Positions 1,248 to 62,816 of a DNA stretch of 64,000 bases are shown here, in pieces. The notes beneath the pieces are model-generated. The model saw only the letters and a list, made by a program, of their open reading frames with translations, had not been told where the DNA came from and searched no databases. The stretch's first letter is position 1; every line of letters begins with the position of its first letter. This DNA comes from an uncultured Candidatus Saccharibacteria bacterium (lineage in GTDB: Bacteria; Patescibacteriota; Minisyncoccia; Sungbacterales; JACQCQ01): NCBI GenBank assembly GCA_964494945.1, contig CAZBTX010000001.1:3088-67087 (forward strand), read 5' to 3'. The position numbers and the translations under genes are program-made.

Positions 1248-1360
1248 TATTTATCCCCACACCTTCCTGAATACCCTGCGGTCTTGCCGCGAGGATGAAG
1301 GGCGGATTCAAATTTTTCCCGCGGGGTTCAATGCCCAGTGAGAATGTGTGGGGATAAATA
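1248..1360. mobile_element. MITE-like palindromic element, long form of about 113 bp, with TATTTATCCCCACAC / GTGTGGGGATAAATA terminal inverted repeats
   Basis: 15-bp perfect terminal inverted repeats. The internal sequence is about 85% identical to the copy at 14357-14470 (CCTTCCYGAATACCC..CGGTCTTGCYGCGRGGATGAAGGGCGGATTCARAT). Confidence 0.65.
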
Positions 1361-1425
1361 AAAAAGCGTAATTATTCCAAGCATTTTTCAACTTGGGGAG
1401 CACTTTGATAAACTGTGCAGCGGCA

Positions 1426-1454
1426 TTGACAATAGCATTGCAATATGCTATGCT
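1426..1454 (+). promoter_or_regulatory. Sigma-70-like promoter TTGACA-17 bp-TATGCT
   Basis: Near-consensus -35 and -10 hexamers with 17-bp spacing, about 120 nt upstream of the CDS at 1574. Confidence 0.4.
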
Positions 1455-1573
1455 TTGTGTTGTTCTTTAAGTATGTTTTGCGGTAACAAAAAGTGTGTTT
1501 AAATGCCCTTTTTGTTGTCGCAAAGCGATCAACCATTCCGCAATAAGGCGGGATGCAACCCAGGAGGCGTGCC

Positions 1574-1996
1574 ATGGAACGGTCTTATCAGTCCTTCCAG
1601 GCTCCCCGGGATGTAGTGATCCAGTTCGGTGCCAGCGACAGCGTTGGCAACGAGAAGCCTGGGTCGCTTCACTTCCTCAACCTCAACGGAGTCCAGCCGA
1701 TGTCGAGTCCGTACGGAACGCCTGTCGGCAATCCGGTGGACATCAGCATCGCGCTCTCGCCCCGTCAGGTGGCGCAGATCGTGAAGCACTTCTTCGTAGA
1801 GGTCGTCTTTGCGGGCGGCATCTACCAGAAGTTCTTCGAGCGCCTGATGACGAAGCGCTGGGCGTTGATGACGGCGGCAGAGTACAAGTCGCCCGTCATG
1901 GACTCCGAGGCTTTCCGCGAGATGCACTACCACAAGGACCATCCGAGTGGCCTGGTGCTTCCCGAGGAAGATGTCGACTGGGCGCACCATCGGTAG
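1574..1996 (+). CDS. Hypothetical protein of 140 aa (GC-rich island)
   Basis: ATG at 1574 after CAGGAGGCG. No recognisable family. A terminator follows. Confidence 0.45.
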   Translation: MERSYQSFQAPRDVVIQFGASDSVGNEKPGSLHFLNLNGVQPMSSPYGTPVGNPVDISIALSPRQVAQIVKHFFVEVVFAGGIYQKFFERLMTKRWALMTAAEYKSPVMDSEAFREMHYHKDHPSGLVLPEEDVDWAHHR

Positions 1997-2005
1997 GGGT
2001 TCTAA

Positions 2006-2065
2006 CCCCGCCAGGTGATAGTTTCGCGAAGCCGCGAGACGATTCACCTGGCGGGTGTTGTTATT
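2006..2065 (+). terminator. Terminator hairpin CCCCGCCAGGTGA...TCACCTGGCGGG followed by a T-rich run
   Basis: 12-bp inverted repeat read directly after the stop at 1996. Confidence 0.5.
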
Positions 2066-2285
2066 TCTGGAGACCAAGTTGATTCAAGAGTTTTCAAATC
2101 ACTGACAATTCTTTTCCAATCCAGAATTCTAAACACATCCAGCCGGGAGCTGCATGTAGACGAGATATTGACAGGATAATTTAAGTGTGATATCTTTTAC
2201 ACTAAGTCGGCGCTGGATAAGGCAATGATCGAGGCCTAATTGTCAGCTTGCCGATATATTATTCGCAGAACTTTCTTTTGTATTT

Positions 2286-2486
2286 ATGCCAGAAGGAACC
2301 ATTGCCCGTAAGACCGATAGAGGCTTCGGCTTCATCAAGCGCGCGGGCGAGGAAAAAGACCTCTTTTTCCACTCGAACGAATTGAAGGGAGTTACCTTTG
2401 ATGAACTTCAAGAAGGCGACGCGGTGACATTTGAAGTCGCGGACAGTCCGAAAGGGCCGAACGCGGTGAATGTAAACCGCGCCTAA
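2286..2486 (+). CDS. cspA: Cold-shock protein (CspA family)
   Basis: 66 aa with RNP1-like GFGFI and HxxxL motifs (KTDRGFGFIKRAGEEKDLFFHSNEL). Confidence 0.85.
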   Translation: MPEGTIARKTDRGFGFIKRAGEEKDLFFHSNELKGVTFDELQEGDAVTFEVADSPKGPNAVNVNRA

Positions 2487-2494
2487 CAAAAACA

Positions 2495-2535
2495 AAAAGC
2501 GTCCCGACATGCGTCGGGACGCTTTTTGTTTTTTC
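2495..2535 (+). terminator. Rho-independent terminator
   Basis: AAAAAGCGTCCCGAC-atgc-GTCGGGACGCTTTTT is a perfect stem followed by a T-run. Confidence 0.75.
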
Positions 2536-2613
2536 ATTTTGATTTGACAGGGGAGTGGGTACCATGTGAACCTATACAAAACACCATCAAACGCTCCATG
2601 AAAGGAGGCGCCA

Positions 2614-2976
2614 ATGCAAGCGTTGTACACGAACATCATCGTCTACACCGTCTTTCTGGTTCTCTGTTGTCTGTTGGCGCTGATCTCCGTTTGGAAAGCG
2701 CACAAGCGGAAGTTGCGCTATGTCTGCTGGATAATCTCACGTGGAGAGGGGTACGTCAGCGCGGAGATCATCTGGCGCCGCATGGGGCGGGAGGGCGGCG
2801 GGGTCATGTCGCCAGATTTTCTGAAGAGGTTCCTTCCGAGGTTGCGGAAGGAAGGATACCTCACCATGCAGCGTCCCGCTTTAATTGCGCTCTACCAGCT
2901 GACGGACAGAGGTCAGGCGGAAGCTCTCCGGCACCGCCCCAGGCCTCGTGCTGTCGTAAGGAGCTTGCGAGGATGA
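2614..2976 (+). CDS. Membrane-anchored small protein with an N-terminal TM helix and a basic winged-helix-like C-terminal part (hypothetical regulator)
   Basis: ATG after AAAGGAGGCG. A hydrophobic stretch of about 20 aa is followed by an R/K-rich region. Confidence 0.4.
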   Translation: MQALYTNIIVYTVFLVLCCLLALISVWKAHKRKLRYVCWIISRGEGYVSAEIIWRRMGREGGGVMSPDFLKRFLPRLRKEGYLTMQRPALIALYQLTDRGQAEALRHRPRPRAVVRSLRG

Positions 2977-3209
2977 GAGAAATCATTCGTGGTACGCCAA
3001 GTGTCGCTAGGAAGTACTGCCCGGCGTGCGAGCCGGATGCTGACCCCAGTCGCGAGATTCTGGACGTACTCTGGTGCGAGAAGCACGTGCCTTCGCGGGA
3101 TGGCAAAGACGATGCGTTGGCGAAGACGAGCGACGTGCCTTTATCTAGAAACGCCGAGGCCGGCGGGGACAACAACCGAAGATGGTGCGAAGCACTGCAT
3201 CGGCGTTAA
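2973..3209 (+). CDS. Small Cys-containing protein (CPAC...WCEKH, zinc-ribbon-like), translationally coupled to the preceding gene
   Basis: ATGA start/stop overlap at 2973-2976. Confidence 0.4.
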   Translation: MREIIRGTPSVARKYCPACEPDADPSREILDVLWCEKHVPSRDGKDDALAKTSDVPLSRNAEAGGDNNRRWCEALHRR

Positions 3210-3331
3210 GGGCCGCTGTGGGAATCAACTCCCCGGCGGCCATTTCTTTTTGTTGACATAAGACCCAAAGTGTGCTTCTCTTTGATTACGCGTTTCTAGA
3301 TTTCCCATGGGCAGAAAGAGGAGGCCCGAGT

Positions 3332-3679
3332 ATGAGCGGACGGGCGGTGAAGCACGTGCGGCAGTCGCTCGGCACCAAGCTCCGCGTGCTCCGGAAGTCA
3401 CGTGGGCTCTCGCAGGAGCATCTCGGCGAGAGGTCGAACCTCTCCGGAAAGTTCATCGGCGAAGTGGAGAGGAGCGAGAAGTCCATCTCCGTGGACTCGC
3501 TCTGGAGAGTCGCGGCGGCCCTCGAGATGCCGCTTCGCGACCTCGTGGACGCGGACTGGAGGAAGCCGGTGACGGACCGCGACAAGAAGATCGCCGAAAT
3601 CATGGCGCTTCTCCGCCGGAAGGGGCAGAAGGAGCTCGCCATGGCCTACGCGCTTCTTCAGGCGCTCTTTGGGAGGTAG
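3332..3679 (+). CDS. XRE-family (Cro/CI-type) HTH transcriptional regulator
   Basis: ATG after GAAAGAGGAGG. The translation LRVLRKSRGLSQEHLGERSNLSGKFIGEVERSEKSISVDSLWRVAAAL matches the HTH_XRE pattern. Confidence 0.7.
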   Translation: MSGRAVKHVRQSLGTKLRVLRKSRGLSQEHLGERSNLSGKFIGEVERSEKSISVDSLWRVAAALEMPLRDLVDADWRKPVTDRDKKIAEIMALLRRKGQKELAMAYALLQALFGR

Positions 3680-3768
3680 ACAAGCTTGGGGATATTCCGG
3701 CGCACGCCGCGGTCGTTGTCAGACCGCGGCGTTTTTCTTTTTATAGAAAATGGGTGTATTTTAAGGGC

Positions 3769-4197
3769 ATGAATTACGGAGAAGGATACAGCCCGCCCGA
3801 GTCAAAAAGCCCGCTGACGGCCCATTATTACGGAGATGCCGTAAGACGCCTTTTTCTACTTGGCGGCATCATCATGATTCTAACCCTGCCGTTTTTTTCA
3901 AACCTTATCCCCGTGTCTGGCTGGGTTTCGCTTTTTGCCATAATTGTTGTTGGAGTAGTATCCGGTCTTACGAATCCAATGCATATTTGGGTGGCAGTAT
4001 TCAATCTGGTTATATCTGTTATCGCTTTTGCGGTGTTTGAATATTACGCGGTGTTACAGTACTTGGCGGATGGCAACGCGAAAGAAACGTGGTTTTTCTT
4101 GACCAACCAGGCGCTGGCTCTGATATTTTTTGTCGCAATATACTACGCGACTAAAACCCTCCGCGGGGATCTCTTAAGAAAAAAAGACGCTGTTTAG
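3769..4197 (+). CDS. Small integral membrane protein with 3-4 TM helices (hypothetical). First gene after the return to AT-richer backbone.
   Basis: ATG at 3769. Long hydrophobic segments. Confidence 0.45.
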   Translation: MNYGEGYSPPESKSPLTAHYYGDAVRRLFLLGGIIMILTLPFFSNLIPVSGWVSLFAIIVVGVVSGLTNPMHIWVAVFNLVISVIAFAVFEYYAVLQYLADGNAKETWFFLTNQALALIFFVAIYYATKTLRGDLLRKKDAV

Positions 4198-4236
4198 AAC
4201 TATTGCATACGCGGGGGAATTTGGTTATAGTCCCTC

Positions 4237-5897: not shown

Positions 5898-6365
5898 ATG
5901 ATGACAAGCCGGACTCGGCGCAGGATAAGGCGGTTTTTCAGAAGAAACAGACCCTGGATTTTTCTGGCTTCTGTGCTCCTCATGCTGGCAGTAGTCGCGG
6001 TTTTGGGGTGTGCTCCGCGGCGGGAAGTGCCGATGCCGAAGAGTCAGGAAACGATTCCGCGACCGCGCCATGACGACTTCGTGGCACAGTTATCGGGCGA
6101 GAAAGAAATATTCGGGAACGAGCTGGAGTTGCCGCCGCGCACGCATGAGCACGGTCTGCGCCGCGCGCCCATCCCTGACGCGGATAACCCGGCTGTCCCA
6201 CTTGACTACTGGCGGCGCTGCGAGTTCAGCGCCATACCGGAGAATGGACTTTCCATCCTCAACTGCTTCTACCCCAGCGGCCAGAAGTTCCGCTACGGTC
6301 CTATAGCCGGTCACCAAGGGCCCGCGCGACGAACAGCGCGGGCCCTTTTTTTAAGACGTTTTTAA
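5898..6365 (+). CDS. Putative lipoprotein on a GC-rich micro-island
   Basis: ATG after GAAAGGGGGGCG. Signal peptide ending LAVVAVLGC (lipobox-like). The 3' end of the CDS runs through its own terminator hairpin. Confidence 0.45.
   Translation: MMTSRTRRRIRRFFRRNRPWIFLASVLLMLAVVAVLGCAPRREVPMPKSQETIPRPRHDDFVAQLSGEKEIFGNELELPPRTHEHGLRRAPIPDADNPAVPLDYWRRCEFSAIPENGLSILNCFYPSGQKFRYGPIAGHQGPARRTARALFLRRF
6318..6352 (+). terminator. Rho-independent terminator GGGCCCGCGC...GCGCGGGCCC followed by TTTTTTT
   Basis: 10-bp perfect stem and T-run, read directly. It overlaps the last codons of the 5898-6365 CDS. Confidence 0.65.
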
Positions 6366-6389: not shown

Positions 6390-7667
6390 ATGAGGAAGTT
6401 GTTATTTATTGCATTGATCGGCATCGGACTTTTACTGGCGCTCGCTTGGGGCGTTGCCTTTTATCCCCACACCTTCCCGAATACTCCGTGGGAGGGTGTG
6501 GGGATTTATTGGGAAAACTTGCGCGGAGCGTGGTTTGCGGTAAAACCCGCCGCACCCAAAATAACTGAAAAAGAGACCGTTTCGGAACTTCCTTTAAAAT
6601 TACCGGCAGACCTTTCCATTTCGTTATTCGCCAAAGACCTTCCCGGCGTTAGAGTCATGGCGCGTGACTCTTTTGGTAACTTTTGGGTAAGTCAGACATC
6701 AGAGGGCGTGATCTCATTTTTGGAAATGGAGGGCGGTAAAGTAAAAAGCCAAAGTATAATACTCAAGAATTTGAAAAAGCCGCACGGTCTGGCCTTTGAC
6801 CCCGAAAATCCTTTTACGCTTTACTTTGCGGAAGAAGATAAGCTCTCAAAAGTGACGGTCTATCCCAACGGGCTCCCACAAAAAATCGCTGATTTGCCGT
6901 CGGGTAGTGGGCACTTTACGCGGACCATTGGATTTGGGCCGGACGGGCGGCTTTATGTTTCCATTGGGTCTTCCTGCAATGTTTGCCGCGAATCTGATAA
7001 CCGGCGCGCCGCTATTTATTCTATGAAAAAAGATGGGTCGGACTTTAAATTATATGCCAGTGGTCTTCGTAACGCCGTATTTTTTACTTGGGCGCAGGAC
7101 GGAAAATTATGGGCGACGGATAACGGTCGTGATCTACTGGGGGATGATCTGCCGCCGGATGAAATCAACATCATTGAATCCGGCAAGAATTATGGTTGGC
7201 CGATTTGCTACGGCAAAAACATACATGACACCGTCTTTGATAAAAATACTTATATTCGCAATCCGTGCATGGAACCGTTTGAAACACCATCTTATATAGA
7301 CCTGCAGGCGCACTCGGCGGCCCTGGGACTCGCTTTTGTACCCCAAAACGGTTGGCCGGAGGATTATCAGGGTAACCTGATAGTGGCTTATCACGGCTCC
7401 TGGAATCGGACCGAGCCGACTGGGTATAAAGTAGTGCGTGTTAAATTGAATTCTTCGGGCGAATTTTTAGGCATTGAAGATTTCATTACCGGTTGGCTCC
7501 GACGCTCCGACGAGAAGTCAGGAGTCGGAGTCCCGACCGTAACGTCGGGACTGACTTCATCGGGCAAAGTTCTAGGCCGTCCGGTTGGAGTTTTCGCCGA
7601 GCCGGGTGGGGTGGTCTACATTACAGACGATAAAGCGGGGATAATATATAAGATAAGCAGAAAATAA
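6390..7667 (+). CDS. PQQ-dependent soluble sugar (glucose/sorbosone) dehydrogenase-like beta-propeller protein
   Basis: Signal peptide. Overall similarity to the YliI/sGDH-type pattern (GPDGRLYVSIG, WATDNGRD, NYGWP). Confidence 0.7.
   Translation: MRKLLFIALIGIGLLLALAWGVAFYPHTFPNTPWEGVGIYWENLRGAWFAVKPAAPKITEKETVSELPLKLPADLSISLFAKDLPGVRVMARDSFGNFWVSQTSEGVISFLEMEGGKVKSQSIILKNLKKPHGLAFDPENPFTLYFAEEDKLSKVTVYPNGLPQKIADLPSGSGHFTRTIGFGPDGRLYVSIGSSCNVCRESDNRRAAIYSMKKDGSDFKLYASGLRNAVFFTWAQDGKLWATDNGRDLLGDDLPPDEINIIESGKNYGWPICYGKNIHDTVFDKNTYIRNPCMEPFETPSYIDLQAHSAALGLAFVPQNGWPEDYQGNLIVAYHGSWNRTEPTGYKVVRVKLNSSGEFLGIEDFITGWLRRSDEKSGVGVPTVTSGLTSSGKVLGRPVGVFAEPGGVVYITDDKAGIIYKISRK
6461..6508. mobile_element. 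Short copy of the ATCCCCACACC-terminus MITE-like family, inserted in-frame near the 5' end of the PQQ-dehydrogenase gene
   Basis: ATCCCCACACCTTCCCGAATACTCCGTGGGAGGGTGTGGGGAT. The same termini and CTTCCCGAATAC core as the copies at 1248 and 14357. It encodes YPHTFPNTPWEGVGIYW within the ORF. Confidence 0.6.
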
Positions 7668-8392
7668 TGGCGGATAACCAATATAACGAGGCCTATATTA
7701 AAGCCAAAGAGCAACAGGCGGAAAAGCACAAGGAGGTTTCTCACGAAAGATCAAAAGACCGCTTGCCGCCCGGCCAAGTACTTACTAAAACCTTTCCCAT
7801 TCTGGATTTGGGTATTAGGCCGACTTTAGACCGTTATCCCAAGTGGACACTGGAGGTTAAGGGTAACGTGGAAAATCCGATCGTATTATCCATTGATGAA
7901 GTGAAAAAAATGGCCGATACCGATATTACGGCTGATTTTCATTGTGTGACGCGTTGGTCGCGGTATGACCTGCATTGGTCGGGGGTCCCATTTTCTAAGA
8001 TCATGGAGCTTGTAAAACCTCGTCTTTCCGCAAACCCCCACACCAAACGAGAACAGCTGGAGAGTATGAATTTTAGTAGTGTCAGTCCTCGTTCTGGTGT
8101 GGGGGTAAAATTCATAGTTTTCCATTCTTTTGACAAATATACGACGAACGTAACTTTGGATGACGTAATGCAAAAGAACGTTATTGTGGCGACAAAACTG
8201 GAAGGCGGCGAAATACCGCCGGAGCACGGCGGGCCGATCAGGATGATACTGCCGCATCTTTACGGCTGGAAATCGGCCAAATTCTTAACGGCGATTGAAT
8301 TTGTGGACGAAGATAAACCCGGTTTTTGGGAGGTACGGGGATACTCCAATAGAGCGCGCCCCTGGATTGAGGAGAGATACAGTGGCGATTAA
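7667..8392 (+). CDS. Sulfite-oxidase-family molybdopterin oxidoreductase (YedY/MsrP-like catalytic subunit)
   Basis: Motifs typical of the SO family, including the CVTRWS cysteine-ligand region. Its ATG overlaps the stop of the upstream gene (TAATG). Confidence 0.7.
   Translation: MADNQYNEAYIKAKEQQAEKHKEVSHERSKDRLPPGQVLTKTFPILDLGIRPTLDRYPKWTLEVKGNVENPIVLSIDEVKKMADTDITADFHCVTRWSRYDLHWSGVPFSKIMELVKPRLSANPHTKREQLESMNFSSVSPRSGVGVKFIVFHSFDKYTTNVTLDDVMQKNVIVATKLEGGEIPPEHGGPIRMILPHLYGWKSAKFLTAIEFVDEDKPGFWEVRGYSNRARPWIEERYSGD
8035..8105. mobile_element. 71-bp palindromic element CCCCCACACCAAACGAGAAC...GTTCTGGTGTGGGGG, inserted in-frame inside the YedY-like gene
   Basis: 15-bp near-perfect inverted repeat whose outer arms equal the 191-217 hairpin and the MITE termini. 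It encodes NPHTKREQLESMNFSSVSPRSGVGVK in the ORF. Confidence 0.55.
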
Positions 8393-8862
8393 TGATTTTG
8401 GCACACCGTTTCGTTTTTAGGCGCGGAGTCAGGCAGTACGGCGTTTAAAACAGAGCTCACAGCATTAACGATAACGCCATTTTTCGGATTTTCCTCCTTT
8501 AACTCTTGGATTAAGACCTTAGCTCCACCCACAGCCGATTGTAGAATTTCTCTTTCTTTTGCCGTTTTGGGTGCCGGAGTTTGGGCGATAACTTGTATCT
8601 CTTTTTCCAGTTTATCTATTATCTCGGCACGCTTTTCCACGGGATTATCTGGTTTTATCCTTTCGGCGATATTGCCGGCGATGGGCGTTATCTTAGCTTT
8701 TAACGGTGGAAGCAGTTTGTCGGGGGAAAAGTTAGAAAGACCCACCGTAGCCATGGCGTTTTGAGCTTTTGCTTTAATGTTCTTTTGTATTTCCGGCGGT
8801 AAGTAGCGAAATCCAATATAGCCGGATACAACTATAGCTGCAATTATAAAAGATGTTTTCAT
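8389..8862 (-). CDS. Membrane-anchored Lys/Ala-rich hypothetical protein
   Basis: N-terminal TM helix followed by a low-complexity region. Convergent with the YedY-like gene. Confidence 0.45.
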   Translation of the reverse strand: MKTSFIIAAIVVSGYIGFRYLPPEIQKNIKAKAQNAMATVGLSNFSPDKLLPPLKAKITPIAGNIAERIKPDNPVEKRAEIIDKLEKEIQVIAQTPAPKTAKEREILQSAVGGAKVLIQELKEENPKNGVIVNAVSSVLNAVLPDSAPKNETVCQNH

Positions 8863-8930
8863 AAGATAAGCAAATTCATAATAGCATAAATTTTGTGGTG
8901 TTTTATGGTGTTCGGGGTCTTATCCCGCCT

Positions 8931-8962
8931 TATATCCCTAATTCGCACGAATTAGGGATATA
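8931..8962. promoter_or_regulatory. Perfect 15-bp inverted repeat TATATCCCTAATTCG-ca-CGAATTAGGGATATA
   Basis: Read directly. It lies in the promoter region of the minus-strand gene 8389-8862. Confidence 0.4.
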
Positions 8963-9111
8963 TTACAATTATCTGCTATAGCATGTTATTGATGTAATTT
9001 TAAAATTCAAGAATATGAAAAAGACACAAAAATTCAATTTGACCAAGCGTAAAGCGCTGTGCTACGAATAAGACGTTCGCTGACATCTGAATATAAAAAC
9101 GAAAGGGGGCG

Positions 9112-10194
9112 ATGCTGGTGGGACGAAAGTTGGTGAGACGAAGGATGGGGGATTTGCCTAGAGTTCTAAAACAGGGCGCTGTTGCCGTTTTTGTCGTTGA
9201 CGCCGCAACTTCATCCGCTAGCATCGTTTCTCACGTTGCTGCTGTTGAGAAGGCGGCACTGAAACTCGCGATTTTCTTAGAGAAAGATGCGAGCGGCAAA
9301 GAAGAAGTACTGGCGGAGATGGGCATCTTTAGGGGACGTCCCTATCGATCGAACCATAAGGCACGCAATTTTGTTGGGATGCGTTCTTATAAGCGCTCAC
9401 TAACAGAGGTTCAAGCGGGGCTGGCGGCGCGGCATATCTGCCTTTTTCTAGACGGCCTAGTGCACCACCGTAGCCAGCAGGAGAAATTGCCAGGCGAGAA
9501 CGGCAGAATGCGCACGCGCGGCTGGGCCCCGCCCGAGATCGATTGGAACTTCAGGCGTCCCTACGGACCTTGTATCACCATCGAAGAGCGCGATTCCGCC
9601 CTACTCCGTCTTTTTGAGGAGCTGGAGACGCTGAATCCGCTTCTCGGCTGGGGAGTGCAGAAGGTAGCGAACGTCGCCAATCATGGTAACTTTCAGAAGA
9701 CCTACCGTGTCCGGAAGAAGGGTGGTAAGTTTCCCAAAAGTTGGTGGGAAGCAGTTGAACTTCTGAAGAAGCGCGACCGGCGGCCGTATTTGAGGCCGCA
9801 TGTTTTGGCGAAAATCGCTTGCCGCGTCAGAAATACTTCCAAGCGGGACAAGCTGTATAACGCGAAGCGTTTCATCGAACTCTGCCGTGAGGAAGAGCTC
9901 GTCGGCCCGTGGGGATACGATCGGGCGCCGCATTATCTCACGCATCCGTACAAGTTTAAGATCCTCCCGCGGGGGGCGGAGTTCTGGGACGTGCTGGAGG
10001 GAAACCACGGCGTGGCCGTAAGTTTCATCCGCAAGATCGAGAGCCGCTACACGATTCGTATCGTGGAGCGAAGAGCAAGTTGGCACAGGAGGAACGAAAA
10101 ACACCAAGCAGCCAACGGTCACACAGAACAAGGTGATCTCTTCGCCGACGATGCGGCGTTCCAAGAGTTCTCACGCATCATTGACGAAGCTTAG
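9112..10194 (+). CDS. Hypothetical 360-aa basic protein, first gene of a GC-rich two-gene island
   Basis: ATG after AAAGGGGGCG. No family recognised. The dense antisense ORFs in the track indicate high GC. Confidence 0.45.
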   Translation: MLVGRKLVRRRMGDLPRVLKQGAVAVFVVDAATSSASIVSHVAAVEKAALKLAIFLEKDASGKEEVLAEMGIFRGRPYRSNHKARNFVGMRSYKRSLTEVQAGLAARHICLFLDGLVHHRSQQEKLPGENGRMRTRGWAPPEIDWNFRRPYGPCITIEERDSALLRLFEELETLNPLLGWGVQKVANVANHGNFQKTYRVRKKGGKFPKSWWEAVELLKKRDRRPYLRPHVLAKIACRVRNTSKRDKLYNAKRFIELCREEELVGPWGYDRAPHYLTHPYKFKILPRGAEFWDVLEGNHGVAVSFIRKIESRYTIRIVERRASWHRRNEKHQAANGHTEQGDLFADDAAFQEFSRIIDEA

Positions 10195-10211
10195 AAGAAA
10201 GGAGGCGCGGC

Positions 10212-11399
10212 ATGGCTAAGCTCGGTACGGGCGCGGCCCTGCCGCGCCCTGATCTCGAACGAGCGGAGTTCGTGTTTCAGAAGCTCGCGAGGGCATGGCG
10301 GGAGCGTGAAAGCGGTGGGTACTTCGGGGGTCTGGTGGCGCCGCAACAACGCTATATGCCCGAAGTCATCAAGAAAAATCCCGACCGCGTCGCGCAGTTC
10401 CTCACGTTTTCCGCCATACTCATGCGCGGCTCGGTTGACTCGGATCATATGTTCGCTTTCGTGGAGAAGTTCTACCGCCTGTACCCTCACTTTTTTGACC
10501 CGCGGGTGCTGGCGCGAACAAAACCGGATGTTTTGGAATCGGTCTTGCGTGAAACCGCGCGCCTTTCTTATCCTAGGGCCTCATATGAGCGCCTCAAAGG
10601 GATAGGCCCGCTCGGGTACAAAGCGGACGAGTTCATACAGCATCTTATCGCCATGGCGCGGGGGATCTGCGATCAATGGGAAGGAGATGCGCGGAATATC
10701 TTCTACGGCGTCAGCAACTTTGACGAGGCGGTGAAGCGCGTCAAGTTCCAGGGCATAGGAGAAAAAATCCTGGCGCTCTGGATGCTGTGGTTCTGGGAGT
10801 TCGGGTTGATACCCAAGGATGTGTCGCTGCCGGGTGTGGCGGACTTTCACTTCCTCCGGATACTTCTCGCCAACCGCATTTGGCAGCCGGAGTTAAAGCC
10901 GCTTCGTGAGGTAGTGCGCGCCGCAGGCCAAAAGCGGTTTCTGCCGCACCTTCTGGAGACGCCGGGCGTGAGGGTTTTAGACAGCACGCGCAATCGCCTG
11001 ATGCGCTGGACGGACGAGTTCCTGCGAGACTTGGGGCTTGACTCTTATGATGTCTCGCACGGTACGTGGTATCTGTCACGGGAGTTCTGCTCGCTCTATC
11101 CCGGGAACAGGGCATCCTCTACCGGTAGGAAAAAGCGAAACGAGATAGTCATAACCGGTTTCGCGGATCTCATAGGGCTTGAGCGCGGCGAGGGCTGGCC
11201 CGATCGTCCCGACTACTGCGGCACCTGCCCGCTCTCATCAACCTGCGAGCTCTCGGTCCCCAACGCGCCGTACTACAGGAACGGCGTAATGGCGGTGGTG
11301 GGGAAGCGCATTCATTCGCCGTTTACGGAACTGCCGGTTATGCGCGAGGTGCCGAGAGACTTTAAGGAAAGGTCATCGGCCTGGAGCCCCGCCCGTTGA
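10212..11399 (+). CDS. HhH-GPD superfamily DNA-glycosylase-like protein with a C-terminal Cys cluster
   Basis: ATG after GAAAGGAGGCGCGGC. FQGIGEKILALWMLWFWEFG...VADFHFLRI aligns by eye with the EndoIII LPGVGRKTA...AVDTHIFRV HhH-GPD segment. A second L-x-GIG hairpin is present. The C-terminal C-x2-C-x5-C is CGTCPLSSTC. Confidence 0.45.
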   Translation: MAKLGTGAALPRPDLERAEFVFQKLARAWRERESGGYFGGLVAPQQRYMPEVIKKNPDRVAQFLTFSAILMRGSVDSDHMFAFVEKFYRLYPHFFDPRVLARTKPDVLESVLRETARLSYPRASYERLKGIGPLGYKADEFIQHLIAMARGICDQWEGDARNIFYGVSNFDEAVKRVKFQGIGEKILALWMLWFWEFGLIPKDVSLPGVADFHFLRILLANRIWQPELKPLREVVRAAGQKRFLPHLLETPGVRVLDSTRNRLMRWTDEFLRDLGLDSYDVSHGTWYLSREFCSLYPGNRASSTGRKKRNEIVITGFADLIGLERGEGWPDRPDYCGTCPLSSTCELSVPNAPYYRNGVMAVVGKRIHSPFTELPVMREVPRDFKERSSAWSPAR

Positions 11400-11430
11400 A
11401 GCACAGCGCGGCGGGGCTCTTTTCTTTTGC
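11387..11430 (+). terminator. Terminator CCCCGCC...GGCGGGG followed by CTCTTTTCTTTTG
   Basis: 7-bp GC stem and T-rich tail after the stop of 10212-11399. Confidence 0.45.
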
Positions 11431-11446
11431 GGGAAAATTGGACATA

Positions 11447-11776
11447 ATGTTCGGGATGATTACACTTGACGATTTTAAGAAAGTTGAAATGAAAGTCGGC
11501 AAAGTTTTGGCGGCCGAACGTGTAGATGACTCGGAGAAACTTTTGAAATTGCGGGTAGATATCGGGAGCGAGAAGCGGCAAATTATCGCGGGTATAGGCA
11601 GCTATTACGCTCCGGAGGAGCTTATGGGGCGAAATATCATAGTTGTCGTGAATTTAGAGCCGCGGATGTTGATGGGCTTAGAATCACAGGGTATGCTACT
11701 CGCAGCTTCCTGTGAGGGCGAAATTTCGATTATTATACCGGATAAAGACGTGGCGCCCGGATCAATTATTCGCTGA
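11447..11776 (+). CDS. tRNA-binding-domain protein (CsaA/Trbp111-like OB fold)
   Basis: LDDFKKVEMKVGKVLAAERVDDSEKLLKLRVDIG...IIAGI matches the tRNA_bind/EMAP-type domain. Confidence 0.65.
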   Translation: MFGMITLDDFKKVEMKVGKVLAAERVDDSEKLLKLRVDIGSEKRQIIAGIGSYYAPEELMGRNIIVVVNLEPRMLMGLESQGMLLAASCEGEISIIIPDKDVAPGSIIR

Positions 11777-11794
11777 TAAAAAGATAAAAACAGT

Positions 11795-12262
11795 ATGGAA
11801 GCGCTATTATCAAAAAAATTTATTCTTATTACTCTTGGGTTTTTAGTTGTGCTGGCACTTGTTACTAGTTTTGGTTTGCGCTGGTATAGCGCTAGGCAGG
11901 AAGCGGCCGGAACCGCTAAAGAAGAAGCGGCTCGTCAAAATGAAACGAATGCCGCCAGGAATATCAAAGAAAATCGTGTGAATTATATCGATGATGGTTT
12001 CTCGCCAAAGGAACTTACTATTGCGGCCGATAGGGGACTGGGTTGCGTGGTGAATGTAGAAAATCAAAGTACTCACGCACTGACGGTTGGTCTTTCGCCG
12101 CATAATCCCGTCAAAGACCCAGGCCAAAATTATCTTCCCGTGCCGCCGGGAGAGAACGTCATGTTTGACCCGCGTTATTCCGGGTACACGGAACTTAGTT
12201 TTCACGACCACGAACGGCCGCAATTTGAATTTACCGTAAAATTTGAGAAGTCATGTCAATGA
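11795..12262 (+). CDS. Membrane-anchored hypothetical protein
   Basis: N-terminal TM helix. No confident family. Confidence 0.4.
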   Translation: MEALLSKKFILITLGFLVVLALVTSFGLRWYSARQEAAGTAKEEAARQNETNAARNIKENRVNYIDDGFSPKELTIAADRGLGCVVNVENQSTHALTVGLSPHNPVKDPGQNYLPVPPGENVMFDPRYSGYTELSFHDHERPQFEFTVKFEKSCQ

Positions 12263-12390
12263 TCTCTTTCTAGGTCAATACTTCGCTATAGCAGAGTATT
12301 GTACGTTCCAATGTTTTGCAGAACATTGGAACATATTTTAGGTTGGTTCGGGTTAATTAGGTCGTAAATTATGTCTGGATTTAGTATCAG

Positions 12391-13284
12391 TCAGTATTGG
12401 TAAGTGTCCACGATGAGGCTGTTTTCGTCGTAGAGGGTTATAATATCGTGGAGTTCGCGCCAGAGTTTTTCGGTGCGGTTTAGATATAGATGCCAGGTGT
12501 TCCTGTAAAAATCTGAAGCATTCCTGAAGTCGTCAACGCACCCCCGGTAATGCATATGATTGGCGATAAATTGGGTACATTCGTCTCCGATGCCGATGGT
12601 GGCCTCACCGGAAATAACGGGTATGCGGCAGGTCGAAAATTTACTTTCTAAAAAGCGCAGGCACACGTCTTTTAAGCTGACAAGTTTGGCAATATCGATC
12701 CGCGGGCACGATTCCGAAAGCCGCGGCGAGAAATCGTTATTTTCGTTAAGGTATCCCGTGCAGGCGTTCTCCCGAAATCCAACATTGACAGGACTGGAAC
12801 CCGTGTGGATGAAAGCTTCTTGATTAGGTTCAAATTTTACCACCGACTTATCAGACACTAACGGGATCAGCGCACCCTCTCCTAAGAGATAACGCTTACC
12901 CTGGGTGTTCGCGAGGGACCAATTGTGAATGTAGATCGGCCCTTTCTTATTCCCCGTATTGTAAATTCTCACGTATTGATCGCGAATCCCGCCGTAGGCC
13001 GCGCCGCTGACGCTTGAAATTTTAACGCTGCCGCGGAAGCCAGAGATGCCAGATTCTGGTTTTAGCACCGGTGCCGGCGGTTCATAACCCGTGCCGCCTG
13101 CCGGAGCCGGTTCTTTAACTCCAGCCGGTGATGAGCCCCAAAACCCGCCGCCGGGTCCGGAGGCGCGGGGGCCGGGAGATAAGAAGTTAAATCCCAAAGT
13201 CCCTTCTTTCACGATGCCAAATCCGCCGGTTGCGATTACCGCGACCGCCACCAAAAGCCCAAAAATTAGAAATACTTTGTCCAT
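12391..13284 (-). CDS. Secreted/membrane-anchored protein with a lamin-tail (LTD)-like domain
   Basis: SVSGAAYGGIRDQYVRIYNTGNKKGPIYIHNWSL is an LTD-like pattern. N-terminal TM anchor. Confidence 0.45.
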   Translation of the reverse strand: MDKVFLIFGLLVAVAVIATGGFGIVKEGTLGFNFLSPGPRASGPGGGFWGSSPAGVKEPAPAGGTGYEPPAPVLKPESGISGFRGSVKISSVSGAAYGGIRDQYVRIYNTGNKKGPIYIHNWSLANTQGKRYLLGEGALIPLVSDKSVVKFEPNQEAFIHTGSSPVNVGFRENACTGYLNENNDFSPRLSESCPRIDIAKLVSLKDVCLRFLESKFSTCRIPVISGEATIGIGDECTQFIANHMHYRGCVDDFRNASDFYRNTWHLYLNRTEKLWRELHDIITLYDENSLIVDTYQY

Positions 13285-13394
13285 CCCGTTAGAAGCAGAT
13301 CGCGATCAGAGTCGCTTTCTGCTTATAATAATCTCTTAATAATGCCATAATTTATTCTTTAAACTTCTTTCGCGATCGCGGCTTCTAACGGGAT
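13283..13394. repeat. Palindromic element of about 110 bp with ATCCCGTTAGAAGC / GCTTCTAACGGGAT termini (repeat family 2)
   Basis: 14-bp perfect terminal inverted repeat. Its arms CCGTTAGAAGCAGATCGCGATCAGAGTCGCTTTCTGC recur in inverted orientation at 17531-17644. Confidence 0.6.
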
Positions 13395-13413
13395 CCATGT
13401 CTAAAGTTTATAT

Positions 13414-14484
13414 TTATAGAAGCACCGCGCCGATGATATCAGGATGTCCGCGTATGAATTCTTCGGCGGTCATCGACTTTCCGCCCGCGGGGCATAATCG
13501 GTCAACGGCCAACGCTCCCTTCGCGGTTTCCACCGCCATAGGCGTTCCCTCGGCTCGCCAGACGGTGCCGGGCGGATTCACCCGAGTACTCGGTATGGCG
13601 CGAGCGGCTTCTATCTTCAAGCGTAGCGCATCACGGTCCCTCTGCCAAAAACAGTGCGATTCGGGCCAGCGGAGGTAAGCCCTGATCTGGCGTTCCAACT
13701 CTTCGGCGGTTTTATCCCACGTGAGCTTGCCGTCCTCTTTTTTCAGTATTTTCGTGTAGGTCGCGAACGCATGGTCTTGCGGAGCCGGTTCTAAACTCCC
13801 TTGAAGCCAGGCCGGAATGGCATTTTTGGCGCACTCCGCGCCAAGTTTCGCCAGCCGCTTTGAAAGCGTTTGTCCGGTATCCCGGTCTTCAATCCGGAGT
13901 CGCGCTTGGGTTAAAATCGGGCCGTGGTCCATTTCTTTGTCCATTAGCATAATAGTGACACCGGTCTCTTTTTCTCCCGCCAGAATAGCGCTTTCAATCG
14001 GGGAAGCGCCGCGATACTTGGGAAGGAGCGACGGATGGATATTCAAAGCGCCGTGCCTGGGAATGCCGAGAATCTCATCGGGAATTATCTTGCCGTAAGC
14101 CGCCACTAAGAAGAGGTCGGAGTCTAGATCGCGCAACATTCTCACAAACTCTGGGTCGCGCAAGGTTTCCGGCTGGAAGATTTTAATACCGTGATTTAGG
14201 GCGAATTCTTTCACGGGGGTAGGGGATAATATTTGGGCTCTCCCCACCGGACGTGGGGGGTTGGTAACTACCGCTACTACCTCCATTCCCGCATTCAAGA
14301 CCTCCGAAAGCGCCGGCACGGAGAATTCAGGGGTGCCCCAAAAAACAATGCGCGGGTTTTTATCCCCACACCTTCCCGAATACCCCACGGTCTTGCTGCG
14401 GGGATGAAGGGCGGATTCAGATCCTTCTCGCGGAGTATAATACCCCGTGGGAAGGTGTGGGGATTTATTAGAAACGTGTTTCAT
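13414..14484 (-). CDS. fmt: Methionyl-tRNA formyltransferase. The six-frame ORF carries an N-terminal extension encoded by the MITE-like element; the functional start is probably near 14350.
   Basis: Core PRIVFWGTPEFSVPALSEVL...HPSLLPKYRGASPI is the Fmt pattern. No ATG or GTG lies between the MITE and the conserved RIVF segment. Confidence 0.85.
   Translation of the reverse strand: MKHVSNKSPHLPTGYYTPREGSESALHPRSKTVGYSGRCGDKNPRIVFWGTPEFSVPALSEVLNAGMEVVAVVTNPPRPVGRAQILSPTPVKEFALNHGIKIFQPETLRDPEFVRMLRDLDSDLFLVAAYGKIIPDEILGIPRHGALNIHPSLLPKYRGASPIESAILAGEKETGVTIMLMDKEMDHGPILTQARLRIEDRDTGQTLSKRLAKLGAECAKNAIPAWLQGSLEPAPQDHAFATYTKILKKEDGKLTWDKTAEELERQIRAYLRWPESHCFWQRDRDALRLKIEAARAIPSTRVNPPGTVWRAEGTPMAVETAKGALAVDRLCPAGGKSMTAEEFIRGHPDIIGAVLL
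14357..14470. mobile_element. MITE-like element, long form of 114 bp, exactly filling the def/fmt junction
   Basis: TTTTTATCCCCACACCTTCCC...GGGAAGGTGTGGGGATTTATTA is a 16-20-bp terminal inverted repeat. The interior is about 85% identical to 1248-1360. Confidence 0.65.
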
Positions 14485-18842: not shown

Positions 18843-19020
18843 TTCAAAAATCAAAATGGAAAATGACGAGTAGAACGACTAATTAACCTAATTTCTAATT
18901 ATTCTAATCAAATCCCAATGTCTAATGACGCAATGATTTAAAATAATAATTAATGAGTCGTTGGACATTCAGGCATTAGACATTGATTAGATTAATTAGA
19001 ATAATTAGATATTCATATGG
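18843..19020. repeat. AT-rich intergenic palindromic element of the CTAAT-motif family
   Basis: Left arm CTAATTAACCTAATTTCTAATTATTCTAATCAAATCCCAATGTCTAATGACG. Right arm CATTAGACATTGATTAGATTAATTAGAATAATTAGATATTC is its approximate reverse complement. Confidence 0.55.
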
Positions 19021-21480: not shown

Positions 21481-21551
21481 CCTCCCATAGCTCAATGGCA
21501 GAGCAGTTGCCTTTTAAGCAATTGACCTAGGTTCGATTCCTAGTGGGAGGA
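21481..21551 (+). tRNA. tRNA-Lys (anticodon UUU)
   Basis: Manual cloverleaf: acceptor CCTCCCA/TGGGAGG, D-stem GCTC/GAGC, anticodon loop CTTTTAA, T-arm CTAGG-TTCGATT-CCTAG. No encoded CCA. Confidence 0.85.
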
Positions 21552-21684: not shown

Positions 21685-21930
21685 ATGTTTTATCTTTATG
21701 TTTTAAAATCAATTCAATTTGGGACCTACTATATTGGTAGTTGTAAAGATTTGCAGATTCGGCTAAGACAGCATAATAGAGGCAAGGTGAAGTCAACAAA
21801 GTTTCGAAAGCCATGGGAACTAGTACATTCAGAACGATTTATGACTTTATCTAAAGCTCGATCAAGAGAACTAGAACTCAAATCTTTAAAAAAGCGTATC
21901 GCATTGGAAAGGTTGATAAAACATTTCTAA
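21685..21930 (+). CDS. Small GIY-YIG nuclease-domain protein (COG2827/UPF0213-like, YhbQ-type)
   Basis: FYLYVLKS...GTYYIGSCKDLQIRLRQHNRG fits the GIY-(x10)-YIG motif plus the conserved R and HN/E region. It sits between tRNA-gene halves. Confidence 0.7.
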   Translation: MFYLYVLKSIQFGTYYIGSCKDLQIRLRQHNRGKVKSTKFRKPWELVHSERFMTLSKARSRELELKSLKKRIALERLIKHF

Positions 21931-21969
21931 AATTTGTGAAATAAATCGAAGATTCTCGACGGCAGAGGT

Positions 21970-22040
21970 GGGCCCTTAGCTTAGTGGCAGAGCACCCGGT
22001 TTGCATCCGGGAGATAGGAGTTCGATTCTCCTAGGGTCCA
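21970..22040 (+). tRNA. tRNA-Ala (anticodon UGC) embedded in a 13-bp extension of its acceptor stem
   Basis: Manual cloverleaf: G3:U70, anticodon loop TTTGCAT, T-arm AGGAG-TTCGATT-CTCCT. Flanking CGACGGCAGAGGT/ACCTCTGCCGTCG extends the acceptor helix. No encoded CCA. Confidence 0.8.
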
Positions 22041-22054
22041 CCTCTGCCGTCGGA

Positions 22055-33631: not shown

Positions 33632-35113
33632 ATGAACGTTCGTGTTCGCATTGCGCCTTCTCCCACCGGACATCTGCATGTCGGCACCGCGCGTTCGGCG
33701 CTTTTTAATTATTTGTTCGCCAAAAAAGCAGGCGGCGAATTTATTTTGCGCATTGAAGACACCGACCGCGAGCGGTCAAAAAAAGAATACGAAGAGGGGA
33801 TTATTGAATCACTAAAGTGGCTTGGCCTTGATTGGGATGAGGGGCCGATCAGACAAAGTGAACGAGTTGATATTTATAAGAAATATATTTCTCAATTGCT
33901 AAAAAATGGTAAGGCATTTGCCTGTTTTTGCGAAAAAAATATTATCGAAAAAGAATTAAAGGACGACCAGCATTATATGCATTATTGTCCATCGAGGAAT
34001 GATGCTTTTAATTCAAATGAAATAAGGCCATTCGTTATTGCCTATAAGAACGACGACTTTGGAGAGCAGCAAAAACAACTTAAACACGAATTACAAAATA
34101 CAAAAAAGATTGGTGGTTTTAGGACTGTGAGTTTACCAACTGAAACAAAAACGTGGATAGAATTTAGCGATGAAATTAGGGGGGAGTTCAGTTTTCCTAA
34201 AGAAATATTTGGTGATTTTATCATCGCAAAAAGTCTCGAGGAGCCACTCTATAACTTTGCGGCAGTTGTTGATGATTATGAGATGAAAATATCGGATGTG
34301 ATCAGAGGAGAGGACCACCTCCCTAATACACCTAAACAGATTCTTCTTTATGGGGCACTTGGTTGGCAACCACCAAAGTTTGCCCATCTTCCGCTTCTTT
34401 TGGGAACTGATCGTTCAAAGCTTTCTAAACGTCACGGAGCGACTTCGGTGATTGAGTTTCGGAAAGAAGGATATTTACCCGAAGCTTTAATCAATTTCCT
34501 GGCGTTACTCGGCTGGAACCCCGGGGGCGAGCAAGAAATCTTCTCACTTAATGAGTTAATTGAAAAATTCTCGCTTGATAAAGTAAATAAGTCGGGTGCT
34601 ATTTTTGACATAGCGAAGCTTGATTGGATGAACGGCGAATATATCCACAAGATGGCTGTCTCTAAACTTGCGGATTTGCTTTCGCCGTTCATGGATAATG
34701 CCGGACTGGATGCCGCTAAGATGCCGAAAGAAAAATTAGAAAAAATAGTGGCTTTGGAGCAGCCCCGCCTTAAGCGCCTTGCCGAGATAGGGGAGAAGGT
34801 AAAATATTTTTTCCGCCAGCCGGAATATGATAAAGAGTTGCTGCGGTGGAAGAATATGAGCGATGAGGAAGTTGCTGACTGTCTTAAAACGGCGGAAAAA
34901 ATAATTTCCAATTTCCAATTTCCAATTTCCAAAGCGGTGATTGAAAAGGCCTTTTTACATGAGATAGGGGAGGGGGACAAAGGGAGAGTTCTTTGGCCGC
35001 TGCGGGTGGCGTTAACCGGTCTTCGATCTTCACCCGGCCCTTTTGATATCATTGAGATCCTGGGACGGGACGAGTCAATTTCGCGCCTAAGGCGCGCCAT
35101 AAATTTGCTCTGA
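33632..35113 (+). CDS. gltX: Glutamate--tRNA ligase
   Basis: HLHVGTARSALFN (HIGH) and KLSKRHG (KMSKS) class I motifs. Confidence 0.9.
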   Translation: MNVRVRIAPSPTGHLHVGTARSALFNYLFAKKAGGEFILRIEDTDRERSKKEYEEGIIESLKWLGLDWDEGPIRQSERVDIYKKYISQLLKNGKAFACFCEKNIIEKELKDDQHYMHYCPSRNDAFNSNEIRPFVIAYKNDDFGEQQKQLKHELQNTKKIGGFRTVSLPTETKTWIEFSDEIRGEFSFPKEIFGDFIIAKSLEEPLYNFAAVVDDYEMKISDVIRGEDHLPNTPKQILLYGALGWQPPKFAHLPLLLGTDRSKLSKRHGATSVIEFRKEGYLPEALINFLALLGWNPGGEQEIFSLNELIEKFSLDKVNKSGAIFDIAKLDWMNGEYIHKMAVSKLADLLSPFMDNAGLDAAKMPKEKLEKIVALEQPRLKRLAEIGEKVKYFFRQPEYDKELLRWKNMSDEEVADCLKTAEKIISNFQFPISKAVIEKAFLHEIGEGDKGRVLWPLRVALTGLRSSPGPFDIIEILGRDESISRLRRAINLL

Positions 35114-36475: not shown

Positions 36476-36964
36476 GTGGTTGTTTATAATAAATATATGC
36501 CATCAGATTTACCCCCACACCGGGAAGCCACAGCTAGAAGGCTACGGAGTAATAATCGTCCGCTCCCAGAGGGAAATTACTTAGACGCCACACTCGTAAA
36601 GGCGTGGTATGGGGGTTTACGATATCGCACCTGGGTCGCGGCATCCTTGCTTTTGCCGTCTTTGGCGCTGGCAGGCACTATACAGATGACCCCCTTAAGG
36701 ATCTTAACGCCGGATGAATTTCTGCGAACGCTTGGTTTTCAAATTTCAGCCGGTGAAGTGAGTGGCCGCGCCCAGAATATCCTTCAAGACATAGAGGCAA
36801 GATTCAGGCAAAGCAGGGGAATGGAGTTGGTGCAATATGTGGAAAAAGATACGGGCATTAATCTAATAGCGCTCGTAAGAAATATTTTGACCATTTCAGC
36901 GTACCTTTTCGTACAAATATTCGCGATTATTTCCGATATTGCTTCTAAACTAGCCGCGCCTTAG
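36476..36964 (+). CDS. Hypothetical protein. Its 5' part overlaps a degenerate CCCCACACC...GGTATGGGGG segment.
   Basis: ORF only. No family recognised. Confidence 0.3.
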   Translation: MVVYNKYMPSDLPPHREATARRLRSNNRPLPEGNYLDATLVKAWYGGLRYRTWVAASLLLPSLALAGTIQMTPLRILTPDEFLRTLGFQISAGEVSGRAQNILQDIEARFRQSRGMELVQYVEKDTGINLIALVRNILTISAYLFVQIFAIISDIASKLAAP

Positions 36965-53050: not shown

Positions 53051-53150
53051 AATATCAATTAATTTTTAATTTCTAATTACTAATTTCTAATCAAACTTAA
53101 ATATCTAATGACCAACTTAAAGATTTAAAAATTTGGGAATTAATCATTGA
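53051..53150. repeat. CTAAT-family AT-rich palindromic intergenic element between dnaK and grpE
   Basis: TTTCTAATCAAACTTAAATATCTAATGACC and an inverted GGACATT..GATTAGGAATTAGGGATTAGATATTGG partner. Confidence 0.5.
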
Positions 53151-53702
53151 TTAGGAATTAGGGATTAGATATTGGACATTTTTATAGACTTTTACCTTGG
53201 CGGGACGCAGGACACGCCCGCCGCGCATGTACCCTCTTTGCATTTCTTCCGCGATGATTCCCTGCTCGTGGTCTTTAGATTCAATTTCATCAATGGCTTC
53301 ATGCAGTTCTGGATCAAATTTAGTGCCGGCAGTTTTTAATGGTTCTACTCCCAGACGCCGCAGGATCTCCAGGCACTGCGACTGGATTAAGTAAAATCCT
53401 TTTCCCGCTTCGTTGGATAGATGTTTTTTATGCTCTTCTCCCAGGGCTAGGTCAAAACTGTCCAAGACCGAAAGAAATTCCAGAATTAATTCGTCTTCCA
53501 GCCGGTCCTTCCAGATTCGTAACCGTTTTTCATCATCTTTTCTGGAATTAATTATATCCGCCTTTGCTCTTTGCCACCCGTCCAGATACTCTTTCTTGTC
53601 ATTTTCGCAGATAGCCAATTTCTCTTTTAATTGTTTTATCTTAGCGACAGGATCGGGGTGAGCGGATTCACCATATTCTTCATTAATTTCCAAGTCATCC
53701 AT
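53151..53702 (-). CDS. grpE: Nucleotide exchange factor GrpE
   Basis: Coiled-coil N-terminus and a conserved C-terminal beta domain (RRLGVEPL...KVKVYK-like). Confidence 0.9.
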   Translation of the reverse strand: MDDLEINEEYGESAHPDPVAKIKQLKEKLAICENDKKEYLDGWQRAKADIINSRKDDEKRLRIWKDRLEDELILEFLSVLDSFDLALGEEHKKHLSNEAGKGFYLIQSQCLEILRRLGVEPLKTAGTKFDPELHEAIDEIESKDHEQGIIAEEMQRGYMRGGRVLRPAKVKVYKNVQYLIPNS

Positions 53703-58873: not shown

Positions 58874-58994
58874 ATTCCTAATTACTAATTTCTAATACCT
58901 AATCAATGTCCAATCTTCAATGCTTAATCTTTCTTCTTCCCGCTTTTGTCATTAGTCATTAGGATTTGATTAGAAATTAGTCATTAGAAATTAA
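58874..58994. repeat. CTAAT-family AT-rich palindromic intergenic element between dnaB and recR
   Basis: TTCTAATACCTAATCAATGTCCAAT and an inverted CATTAGTCATTAGGATTTGATTAGAAATTAG partner. Confidence 0.5.
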
Positions 58995-60016: not shown

Positions 60017-60234
60017 TCGATAACTTTTTGGAAAGCGTATAAAAATCCCAGCGAGATTTTTATCCTCGCCGCGCTCCTCATCGTCCCGACTGCGTCGGGA
60101 ACCATGCCGATTCGTCGCGCGAGCGTTTCCAGAAAAGCTATCTTCACTTAGGTATTTTCTGAAGGTAGCCCTATGGGCTCTTTATTTATAAACGCCAAAG
60201 CAATGTAGCAAATCATTGAGATACTTGCAAGCGT

Positions 60235-62624: not shown

Positions 62625-62816
62625 GGTTCTAAATTTCTAATTCCCAATATCTAATTTCTAATCAAATCAAAATGCCCAATGACCAATTTGAAAATTTGAG
62701 CATTAGTCATTGATTGGTGATGGCGAATTGGACATTAGACATTTCATGGCGTTGCTGTTATTACTATTATACCAGCGTCTAGAAATTAGTAATGGCGAAC
62801 TGGAAATTTTTCTGTC
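62625..62816. repeat. CTAAT-family AT-rich palindromic intergenic element between the PGM/PMM gene and ychF
   Basis: TTTCTAATCAAATCAAAATGCCCAATGACC ... CATTAGTCATTGATTGG ... GGACATTAGACATTTC with inverted-repeat organisation. Confidence 0.5.

Follow-up and report, generated by a model that had tools for sequence, protein, structure and literature searches.

Palindromic, MITE-like elements lie in frame within genes of an ultra-small groundwater bacterium, Candidatus Sungbacteria

In Candidatus Sungbacteria, an ultra-small groundwater bacterium, short palindromic elements are present in six copies within a window of 64 kb (the whole stretch of DNA analysed here) and, judged from the reading frames and from close relatives, four of the six copies sit in frame within real genes. 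These four copies are predicted to add 15 to 36 amino acids to the encoded proteins. A repeat family with inverted termini, duplications, empty sites, stop-free frames and identical copies at multiple loci is observed. Most probably, the elements are palindromic, non-autonomous miniature transposable elements (MITEs), which belong to one superfamily and are read through where they lie in genes. We infer that a transposase making a 4-bp staggered cut mobilises them in trans.

The terminus ATCCCCACACC (at most one mismatch) is found 11 times in the 64-kb window versus 0.71 matches expected, a 15-fold enrichment, and none of 100 shuffled windows contained 11 matches. The matches pair as inverted ends and yield six elements of two subfamilies, A and B, which have only the outer 10 bp in common, namely the terminal inverted repeat YCCCCACACC...GGTGTGGGGR. 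With refined limits, the A type reads TCCCCACACC...GGTGTGGGGA, also written TCCCCACACCTTCCCGAATAC...GGGAAGGTGTGGGGA, and is 101 nt long, with a deletion derivative of 41 nt. The B type has the ends CCCCCACACC...GGTGTGGGGG, mutually unrelated interiors and lengths of 27, 71 and 104 nt. Both types are bordered by a 4-nt repeat. The six copies are the following:

191-217, B-type short hairpin, CCCCCACACC-AAAATTT-GGTGTGGGGG (27 nt); intergenic, with the flanks TGAA and TAGA as a decayed duplication
1254-1354, plus strand, A type of full length (101 nt); intergenic, the most degenerate copy
6464-6504, plus strand, short A type (41 nt), with TTTA at 6460-6463 and 6505-6508; in the gene of a PQQ-type dehydrogenase
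8035-8105, plus strand, B type (71 nt), with the flanks CAAA and TAAA; in a YedY/sulfite-oxidase-like gene
14363-14463, plus strand, A type of full length (101 nt), with TTTA at 14359-14362 and 14464-14467; inside fmt
36512-36615, plus strand, long B type (104 nt), with TTTA at 36508-36511 and 36616-36619; in the gene of a small exported or membrane protein

A preliminary description of this DNA had reported a family of palindromic elements in at least five places. The family is real and the five copies listed there were recovered, including the shorter members at 191-217, 6461-6508 and 8035-8105, which are as described; the sixth copy, 36512-36615, was absent from that list. The two long copies of the A type (1254-1354 and 14363-14463), given as about 85% identical, are 84.9% identical across 106 nt, and the terminal inverted repeats are present with arms of 16-22 nt in the individual copies. 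The proposed folding into a long stem was borne out in comparison with shuffled sequences (z -4.4 to -6.6), with the exception of 36506-36622, which reaches only z -1.9. That the elements have no coding capacity was wrong in one respect, since the A consensus is stop-free in four of the six reading frames and four copies would be read within host genes. The sizes of 27-104 nt leave no room for an enzyme gene, and in this the elements resemble MITEs, which are small and contain no internal transposase.

The short copy 6464-6504 corresponds to the full A element without the 60 bp between the internal direct repeats ATACCCCGYGG, and a second, independent 41-nt A derivative, with a slightly different junction, is present in another genome (L018). 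At 1254-1354, the flanks are inverted and not direct, TTTA (1250-1253) and TAAA (1355-1358), which counts against the main explanation. Decay, or the recombination of two copies in opposite orientation, could explain these flanks. Outside of the six copies, the stretch 45995-46020, GGGAAAGGTGTGGGGCG, lies within the gene of a 2355-aa surface protein (40550-47617, minus strand). It encodes ...TPHTFPAW..., which is similar to the element-encoded YPHTFPNTPW, and may be a decayed half element.

The window is assigned to Candidatus Sungbacteria, as two proteins with this label (P0004 and P0124) are 100% identical to window proteins. For the four copies in genes, exactly 45, 75, 105 and 108 bp are missing from the closest homologues (85-87% identical) and from a syntenic relative. 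The syntenic relative, contig JACQLR010000060 (L019), carries the same pair of genes for the PQQ-type dehydrogenase and the YedY-like protein. Within the dehydrogenase gene (6390-7667), the 41-nt A element follows the signal peptide in frame and is predicted to encode the peptide YPHTFPNTPWEGVGI. Here, L019 displays a 45-bp gap and reads TTTTATTGGG, compared with TTTTA-(41 nt)-TTTATTGGG in the window. At the site of the 71-nt B element, L019 displays a 75-bp gap and reads GCTTCGGTAAAG, with GGTAAAG in place of the window insert. Both empty sites contain a single copy of the target. The YedY/sulfite-oxidase-like molybdoenzyme (gene 7667-8392) has 241 aa versus mostly 210-225 aa among the best matches listed, and in an alignment with its 13 closest homologues (at most 85% identical) the residues ANPHTKREQLESMNFSSVSPRSGVG (25 aa) are present only in the window protein. 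Their coding sequence is exactly the B element with 4 nt added (75 bp), and an AlphaFold model places these residues as a low-confidence stretch between a conserved helix and a conserved strand. A search of public assemblies for the exact YedY-like protein gave no record.

The gene fmt (13414-14484, minus strand) starts with an ATG that overlaps the end of def. Its insert of 105 bp, corresponding to 35 aa, lies in frame between codon 7 and the start of the conserved RIVFWGTPEF, and the similarity of Fmt to solved structures starts only at residue 43-45. Among 20 Fmt homologues, the N-termini in front of the conserved (R/K)(I/V)(V/I)F(W/F)GTPEF block are short, mostly about 3-12 residues versus 44 in the window, and one of the 20 begins inside of this block. 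Removal of the element and one TTTA in silico results in MKHVSNKNPRIVFWGTPEF. In the fourth case, an ORF starting at ATG 36497, the 104-nt B element is located five codons in and adds 108 bp or 36 aa; an 87%-identical homologue of 119 aa (P0244) lacks exactly these 36 residues. Similar cases are found elsewhere. A PgeF/YfiH-type gene (L007), in which the PF02578 match covers 227 residues for 189 profile positions, contains an A element in frame, and further A elements lie in frame in a NUDIX gene (L012) and in an ORF for a membrane protein (L013). A concatenated query of the four open-frame peptides matched only three proteins, which indicates that translated copies are rare in public protein sets.

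Taken by length, the five distinct in-gene inserts of 45, 54, 75, 105 and 108 bp (the 54-bp insert being a different double hairpin at 7497-7550 and not an A or B element) are all divisible by three and contain no stop codon in the frame of the host gene. Element plus duplication comes to 33, 45, 75, 105 and 108 bp, each divisible by three; the hairpin at 191-217, with 27+4 = 31 nt, is no multiple of 3. Due to this divisibility and to the four stop-free frames of the A type, an insertion into a coding sequence leaves the gene unbroken. Such in-gene lengths and stop-free frames are the pattern expected from selection on inserts that are read through. Translation of the inserts is predicted solely from frame, length and absence of stop codons, with putative junction peptides such as GVAFYPHTFPNTPWEGVGIYWENLR and LSANPHTK...SGVGVK.

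The elements are not restricted to the window. A search for exact matches to ATCCCCACACCTTCCYGAATAC, with each of 185,579 species represented by a single genome, yielded 18 stretches, 16 of which belong to the CPR assembly CAYNAP01 (labelled Saccharibacteria), one to CAZVQM01 and one to a Candidatus Liptonbacteria assembly. In JGI metagenomes 11 further contigs contain ATCCCCACACCTTCCYGAATAC, and the element was matched in none of the viral contigs, phage records and plasmid records scanned. CAYNAP01 contains at least 18 copies, compared with six in the 64-kb window; four of its A copies, at separate loci, do not differ in sequence, and others share 95-99% identity. The element of the window and that of CAYNAP01 share 91% identity, in contrast to orthologous proteins that are 42-71% identical, which suggests that the element has spread horizontally between hosts.

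After removal of duplicates, 26 distinct A-type insertion sites were obtained from the window, three CPR assemblies and the metagenome contigs. A check for target-site duplications was positive, as the direct repeat TTTA/TTTA borders the element at 23 of these 26 sites; the other three have TAAA/TAAA, TTTA/TTAA and TTTA/TAAA. A T follows the right-hand repeat in 25 of 26 sites, with a second T behind it in 20 of 26, and the positions upstream of the left repeat are random. The direct repeats of the B type vary, with TAAA/TAAA (L017), TTTA/TTTA (36512), TGAA/TGAA (nested copies) and CAAA/TAAA (8035). In CAYNAP01, short B hairpins and a third hairpin type are nested in A elements, each at TGAA, showing that the elements insert into one another (L004, 4367-4522; L005, 6753-6910; L009, 746-900 and 1857-2024; L010; L018, 3042-3207). 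The nested short B hairpin reads CCCCCACACC-AAAAGTTTT-GGTGTGGGGG and the other nested type CCCTCCCACC-AAAATTT-GGTGGGAGGG.

Repeats, varying duplications, identical copies and nesting are marks of a transposable element with a 4-bp target duplication. The superfamily would accordingly be defined by the 10-bp inverted repeat YCCCCACACC and a 4-bp target duplication, which would be TTTA for the A type and TTTA, TAAA or TGAA for the B type. The elements would be excised or copied by an enzyme that acts in trans and whose gene lies elsewhere, and would be inserted at A/T-rich tetranucleotides by a 4-bp staggered cut at TTTA(TT) or TNWA, where the A-type target would be TTTA followed by TT. Copies in coding sequences would then be read through and would form a loop of 15-36 residues or an N-terminal extension.

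The preliminary description had likewise considered the family as non-autonomous, mobile and RPE-like and not as a gene-specific regulatory site, and the inverted termini, 4-bp duplications, empty sites and identical copies at different loci of another genome support this, together with the negative outcome of the Rfam and terminator comparisons. It had missed the in-frame insertion into genes, and its further ideas, that the copies are small RNAs or footprints of the DNA that delivered G+C-rich islands, found no support. As for the latter, the island 5898-6365 is conserved in L019 with a G+C content of 0.61, and L019 is free of elements.

A search for the responsible enzyme in the window, by Pfam on the unexplained ORFs and by reading of the remaining ORFs, revealed no autonomous element and no recognisable transposase with the ends of the element, apart from a weak IS21-like match at 873-1193 (see below). 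Distant pairs of termini that might bound an autonomous element gave nothing convincing in the window and about 200 kb of related loci. Around copies elsewhere, Pfam analysis of 144 ORFs revealed no transposase among the 25 listed of 182 matching families, so that a transposase present in a single copy could be hidden among the others. A gene of the RAYT/Y1 type was seen neither in the window ORFs checked nor among the same 25 of 182 families listed for the 144 flanking ORFs.

The orientation of the A type relative to its non-palindromic target is constant at 24 of 26 sites, which is unusual for a symmetrical DDE cut-and-paste element and would fit a strand-specific HUH-type or a site-specific mechanism. 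This leads to a rather unlikely alternative, in which an HUH/Y1 enzyme (IS200/IS605 TnpA, or a RAYT as with REP/REPIN elements) or a site-specific recombinase with TTTA as its core would move the copies as single-strand hairpin elements. Insertion would then occur in one orientation 3' of TTTA, and the right-hand TTTA would be the cleavage site of the element itself and not a duplication. The constant flanking tetranucleotide, the asymmetric extended target TTTA-TT and the folding of the entire element as well as of three internal arms into hairpins are in line with this, as is the fact that a DDE transposase was not found in the window ORFs or among the 25 of 182 families listed for the 144 flanking ORFs. 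The B copies speak against it, since copies with the same termini have different direct repeats (TAAA, TTTA, TGAA), which resemble true duplications. Furthermore, the orientation of the elements is unbiased relative to the G+C skew (16 versus 13 in the test for leading and lagging strand), and a Y1 transposase is as little seen as a DDE enzyme in the ORFs and listed families named above.

The comparison with REPs also weighs against this alternative. With the REP/REPIN and RAYT systems they have in common that they are short G+C-rich palindromes, sometimes paired hairpins of about 100 nt, which are present in tens of copies and would be mobilised in trans. In contrast to REPs, they have perfect terminal inverted repeats and no GTAG head, the B duplications are variable, and four of the six window copies are intragenic and not extragenic. 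Palindrome-associated elements derived from IS200/IS605 have subterminal hairpins and lack terminal inverted repeats, and they insert with strand bias, and without a duplication, 3' of a fixed tetra- or pentanucleotide. The elements described here have a fixed TTTA and a fixed orientation, but differ by their inverted termini, the varying B repeats and the unbiased skew.

Unlikely as well is a further reading of the YCCCCACACC elements, in which they would move by an orientation-specific mechanism that has gone unrecognised, always in one orientation to the asymmetric target TTTA-TT, would be exchanged horizontally among CPR lineages with ultra-small genomes and would be a regular source of protein loops, even in the essential fmt.

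That the copies are functional RNA or DNA structures such as terminators, attenuators or small RNAs, which are kept for their fold and did not spread by transposition, is highly improbable. The predicted hairpins are indeed very stable, with the z-scores of -4.4 to -6.6 given above, and two copies are intergenic. The other four are located in coding regions where close relatives have an empty site, which also speaks against the small RNAs of the preliminary description. An Rfam scan matched no family to the elements, either at the gathering score or at a relaxed threshold (E up to 5). Nor do they represent a known terminator motif: no T-run follows the hairpins, the good terminator candidates of the genome look different, and the terminator test gave only weak partial matches, which come from the ATTTATT flank. 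Covariation does not exceed the shuffle control, as 134 of 500 shuffles reach the observed score. The set used here consisted of 12 distinct 101-nt copies, in which 91% of the cells pair and the first 21 columns are invariant only through the constraint of the search pattern.

Scarcely credible is the view that the inserts remain untranslated, either by ribosome bypass with the duplication as take-off and landing codons, as known from the byp elements of Magnusiomyces mitochondria and from T4 gene 60, or by excision from the mRNA, since, although the flanking repeat creates identical codons on both sides (e.g., TAT...TAT at 6461 and 6506) with a strong hairpin in between, all five in-gene inserts are divisible by three and stop-free, a constraint needed only under read-through, and the fmt copy has TAT at the codon where the CAYNAP01 consensus has TAG in the same frame. 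The in-frame, stop-free pattern argues against removal of the insert by bypassing or splicing. In yeast mitochondria, mobile G+C clusters and byp elements are likewise G+C-rich hairpins of very small size with A/T-rich targets and a small duplication, which are nested and occur in coding regions. Both are organellar, and ribosomes bypass the byp elements, for which no reading frame has to be kept, unlike the in-frame and stop-free elements described here.

Read as MITEs, the elements fit the general structural definition established for bacteria. Bacterial MITEs are small and have terminal inverted repeats, short flanking direct repeats, no transposase, a stem-loop structure and occasional in-frame fusions (PMC5896051). 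The comparison included Correia/NEMIS, ERIC, RUP and Coxiella QMITE1/2 (PMC5896051). Most bacterial MITEs lie chiefly between genes, often with TA at the termini, whereas here four of six copies are intragenic, the target is TTTA(TT) and the orientation is fixed.

In their behaviour, the elements appear to match the Rickettsia palindromic elements (RPEs), for which an unusually high frequency of in-frame integration has been described in a 2024 review (PMC10969869). RPEs are about 100-150 bp in size and the added peptide is compatible with the fold of the protein (PMC10969869). Like RPE-1 to RPE-10, the elements are palindromic, without a transposase, divided into several families and often in frame in unrelated housekeeping genes (PMC10969869). 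The likeness would be a functional one only, since the host belongs to the CPR/Patescibacteria and not to Rickettsia, which by host excludes the assignment as RPE. Features that may set the elements apart are the shared 10-bp terminus, the defined 4-bp duplication (TTTA) and derivatives down to 27-41 nt. Full-text literature searches yielded no description of MITEs in CPR/Patescibacteria or Sungbacteria.

The window contains further repeats. The 54-bp double hairpin at 7497-7550, CTCCGAC...GTCGGAG followed by TCCCGAC-CGTAAC-GTCGGGA, forms an in-frame part of the PQQ-type dehydrogenase gene and is missing from L019. Hairpins of the form CCCGAC-N-GTCGGG occur three times in the window versus 0.04 expected, the others being at 2503-2518 and 60085-60099, which points to a second family of palindromic inserts besides the YCCCCACACC elements. 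Intergenic A/T-rich arrays of heptamers (AATTTCT, AATTACT and variants) are present at 18890-19013, 34903-34926, 53061-53173, 58873-58992 and 62631-62809, with inverted arrays at all of these sites except 34903-34926. The motif AATTTCTAAT (at most one mismatch) has 37 matches versus 8.8 expected. These arrays may be protein-binding arrays or a further repeat family.

Several other regions deserve mention. The ORF 873-1193 (64% G+C) has a weak match to the N-terminal part of an IS21-family transposase (NF033546, E 4e-4, 20 bits versus a cut-off of 160) and is not linked to the elements. It is followed by a near-perfect 20-bp hairpin (1199-1242, 90% complementary), and the A element at 1254 begins 12 nt further on. 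In the G+C-rich region 1400-4200, long ORFs overlap on the two strands, and those tested did not match Pfam. An 81-aa GIY-YIG-like ORF (21685-21930) separates two tRNA genes (21481-21551 and 21970-22040), and a 20-nt inverted repeat (21957-21976 and 22033-22052) embraces the second tRNA and reaches past its acceptor stem. Two large neighbouring ORFs at 9112-11399 (360 and 395 aa) are without a match in Pfam; on the public contig L020 (JACOYZ010000021.1) they are called without annotation.

For the use of such genomes, the elements have practical consequences. Annotated proteins are inflated or altered by them, as in the case of Fmt, whose annotated length of 356 aa includes the element, and spurious 'lineage-specific' insertions enter alignments and structure predictions. 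The contig L020, which is identical to 7909-14484 of the window, stops at the start of fmt beside the A element, and this suggests that these repeats can break assemblies. With a defined target and near-identical copies in one assembly, the elements are usable as a population marker at strain level, and the family offers a starting point in the search for the missing transposase.

That palindromic selfish DNA often enters housekeeping genes in frame has hitherto been regarded as largely a peculiarity of Rickettsia. The same behaviour in an ultra-small CPR bacterium of a free-living community suggests that it recurs in reduced genomes.
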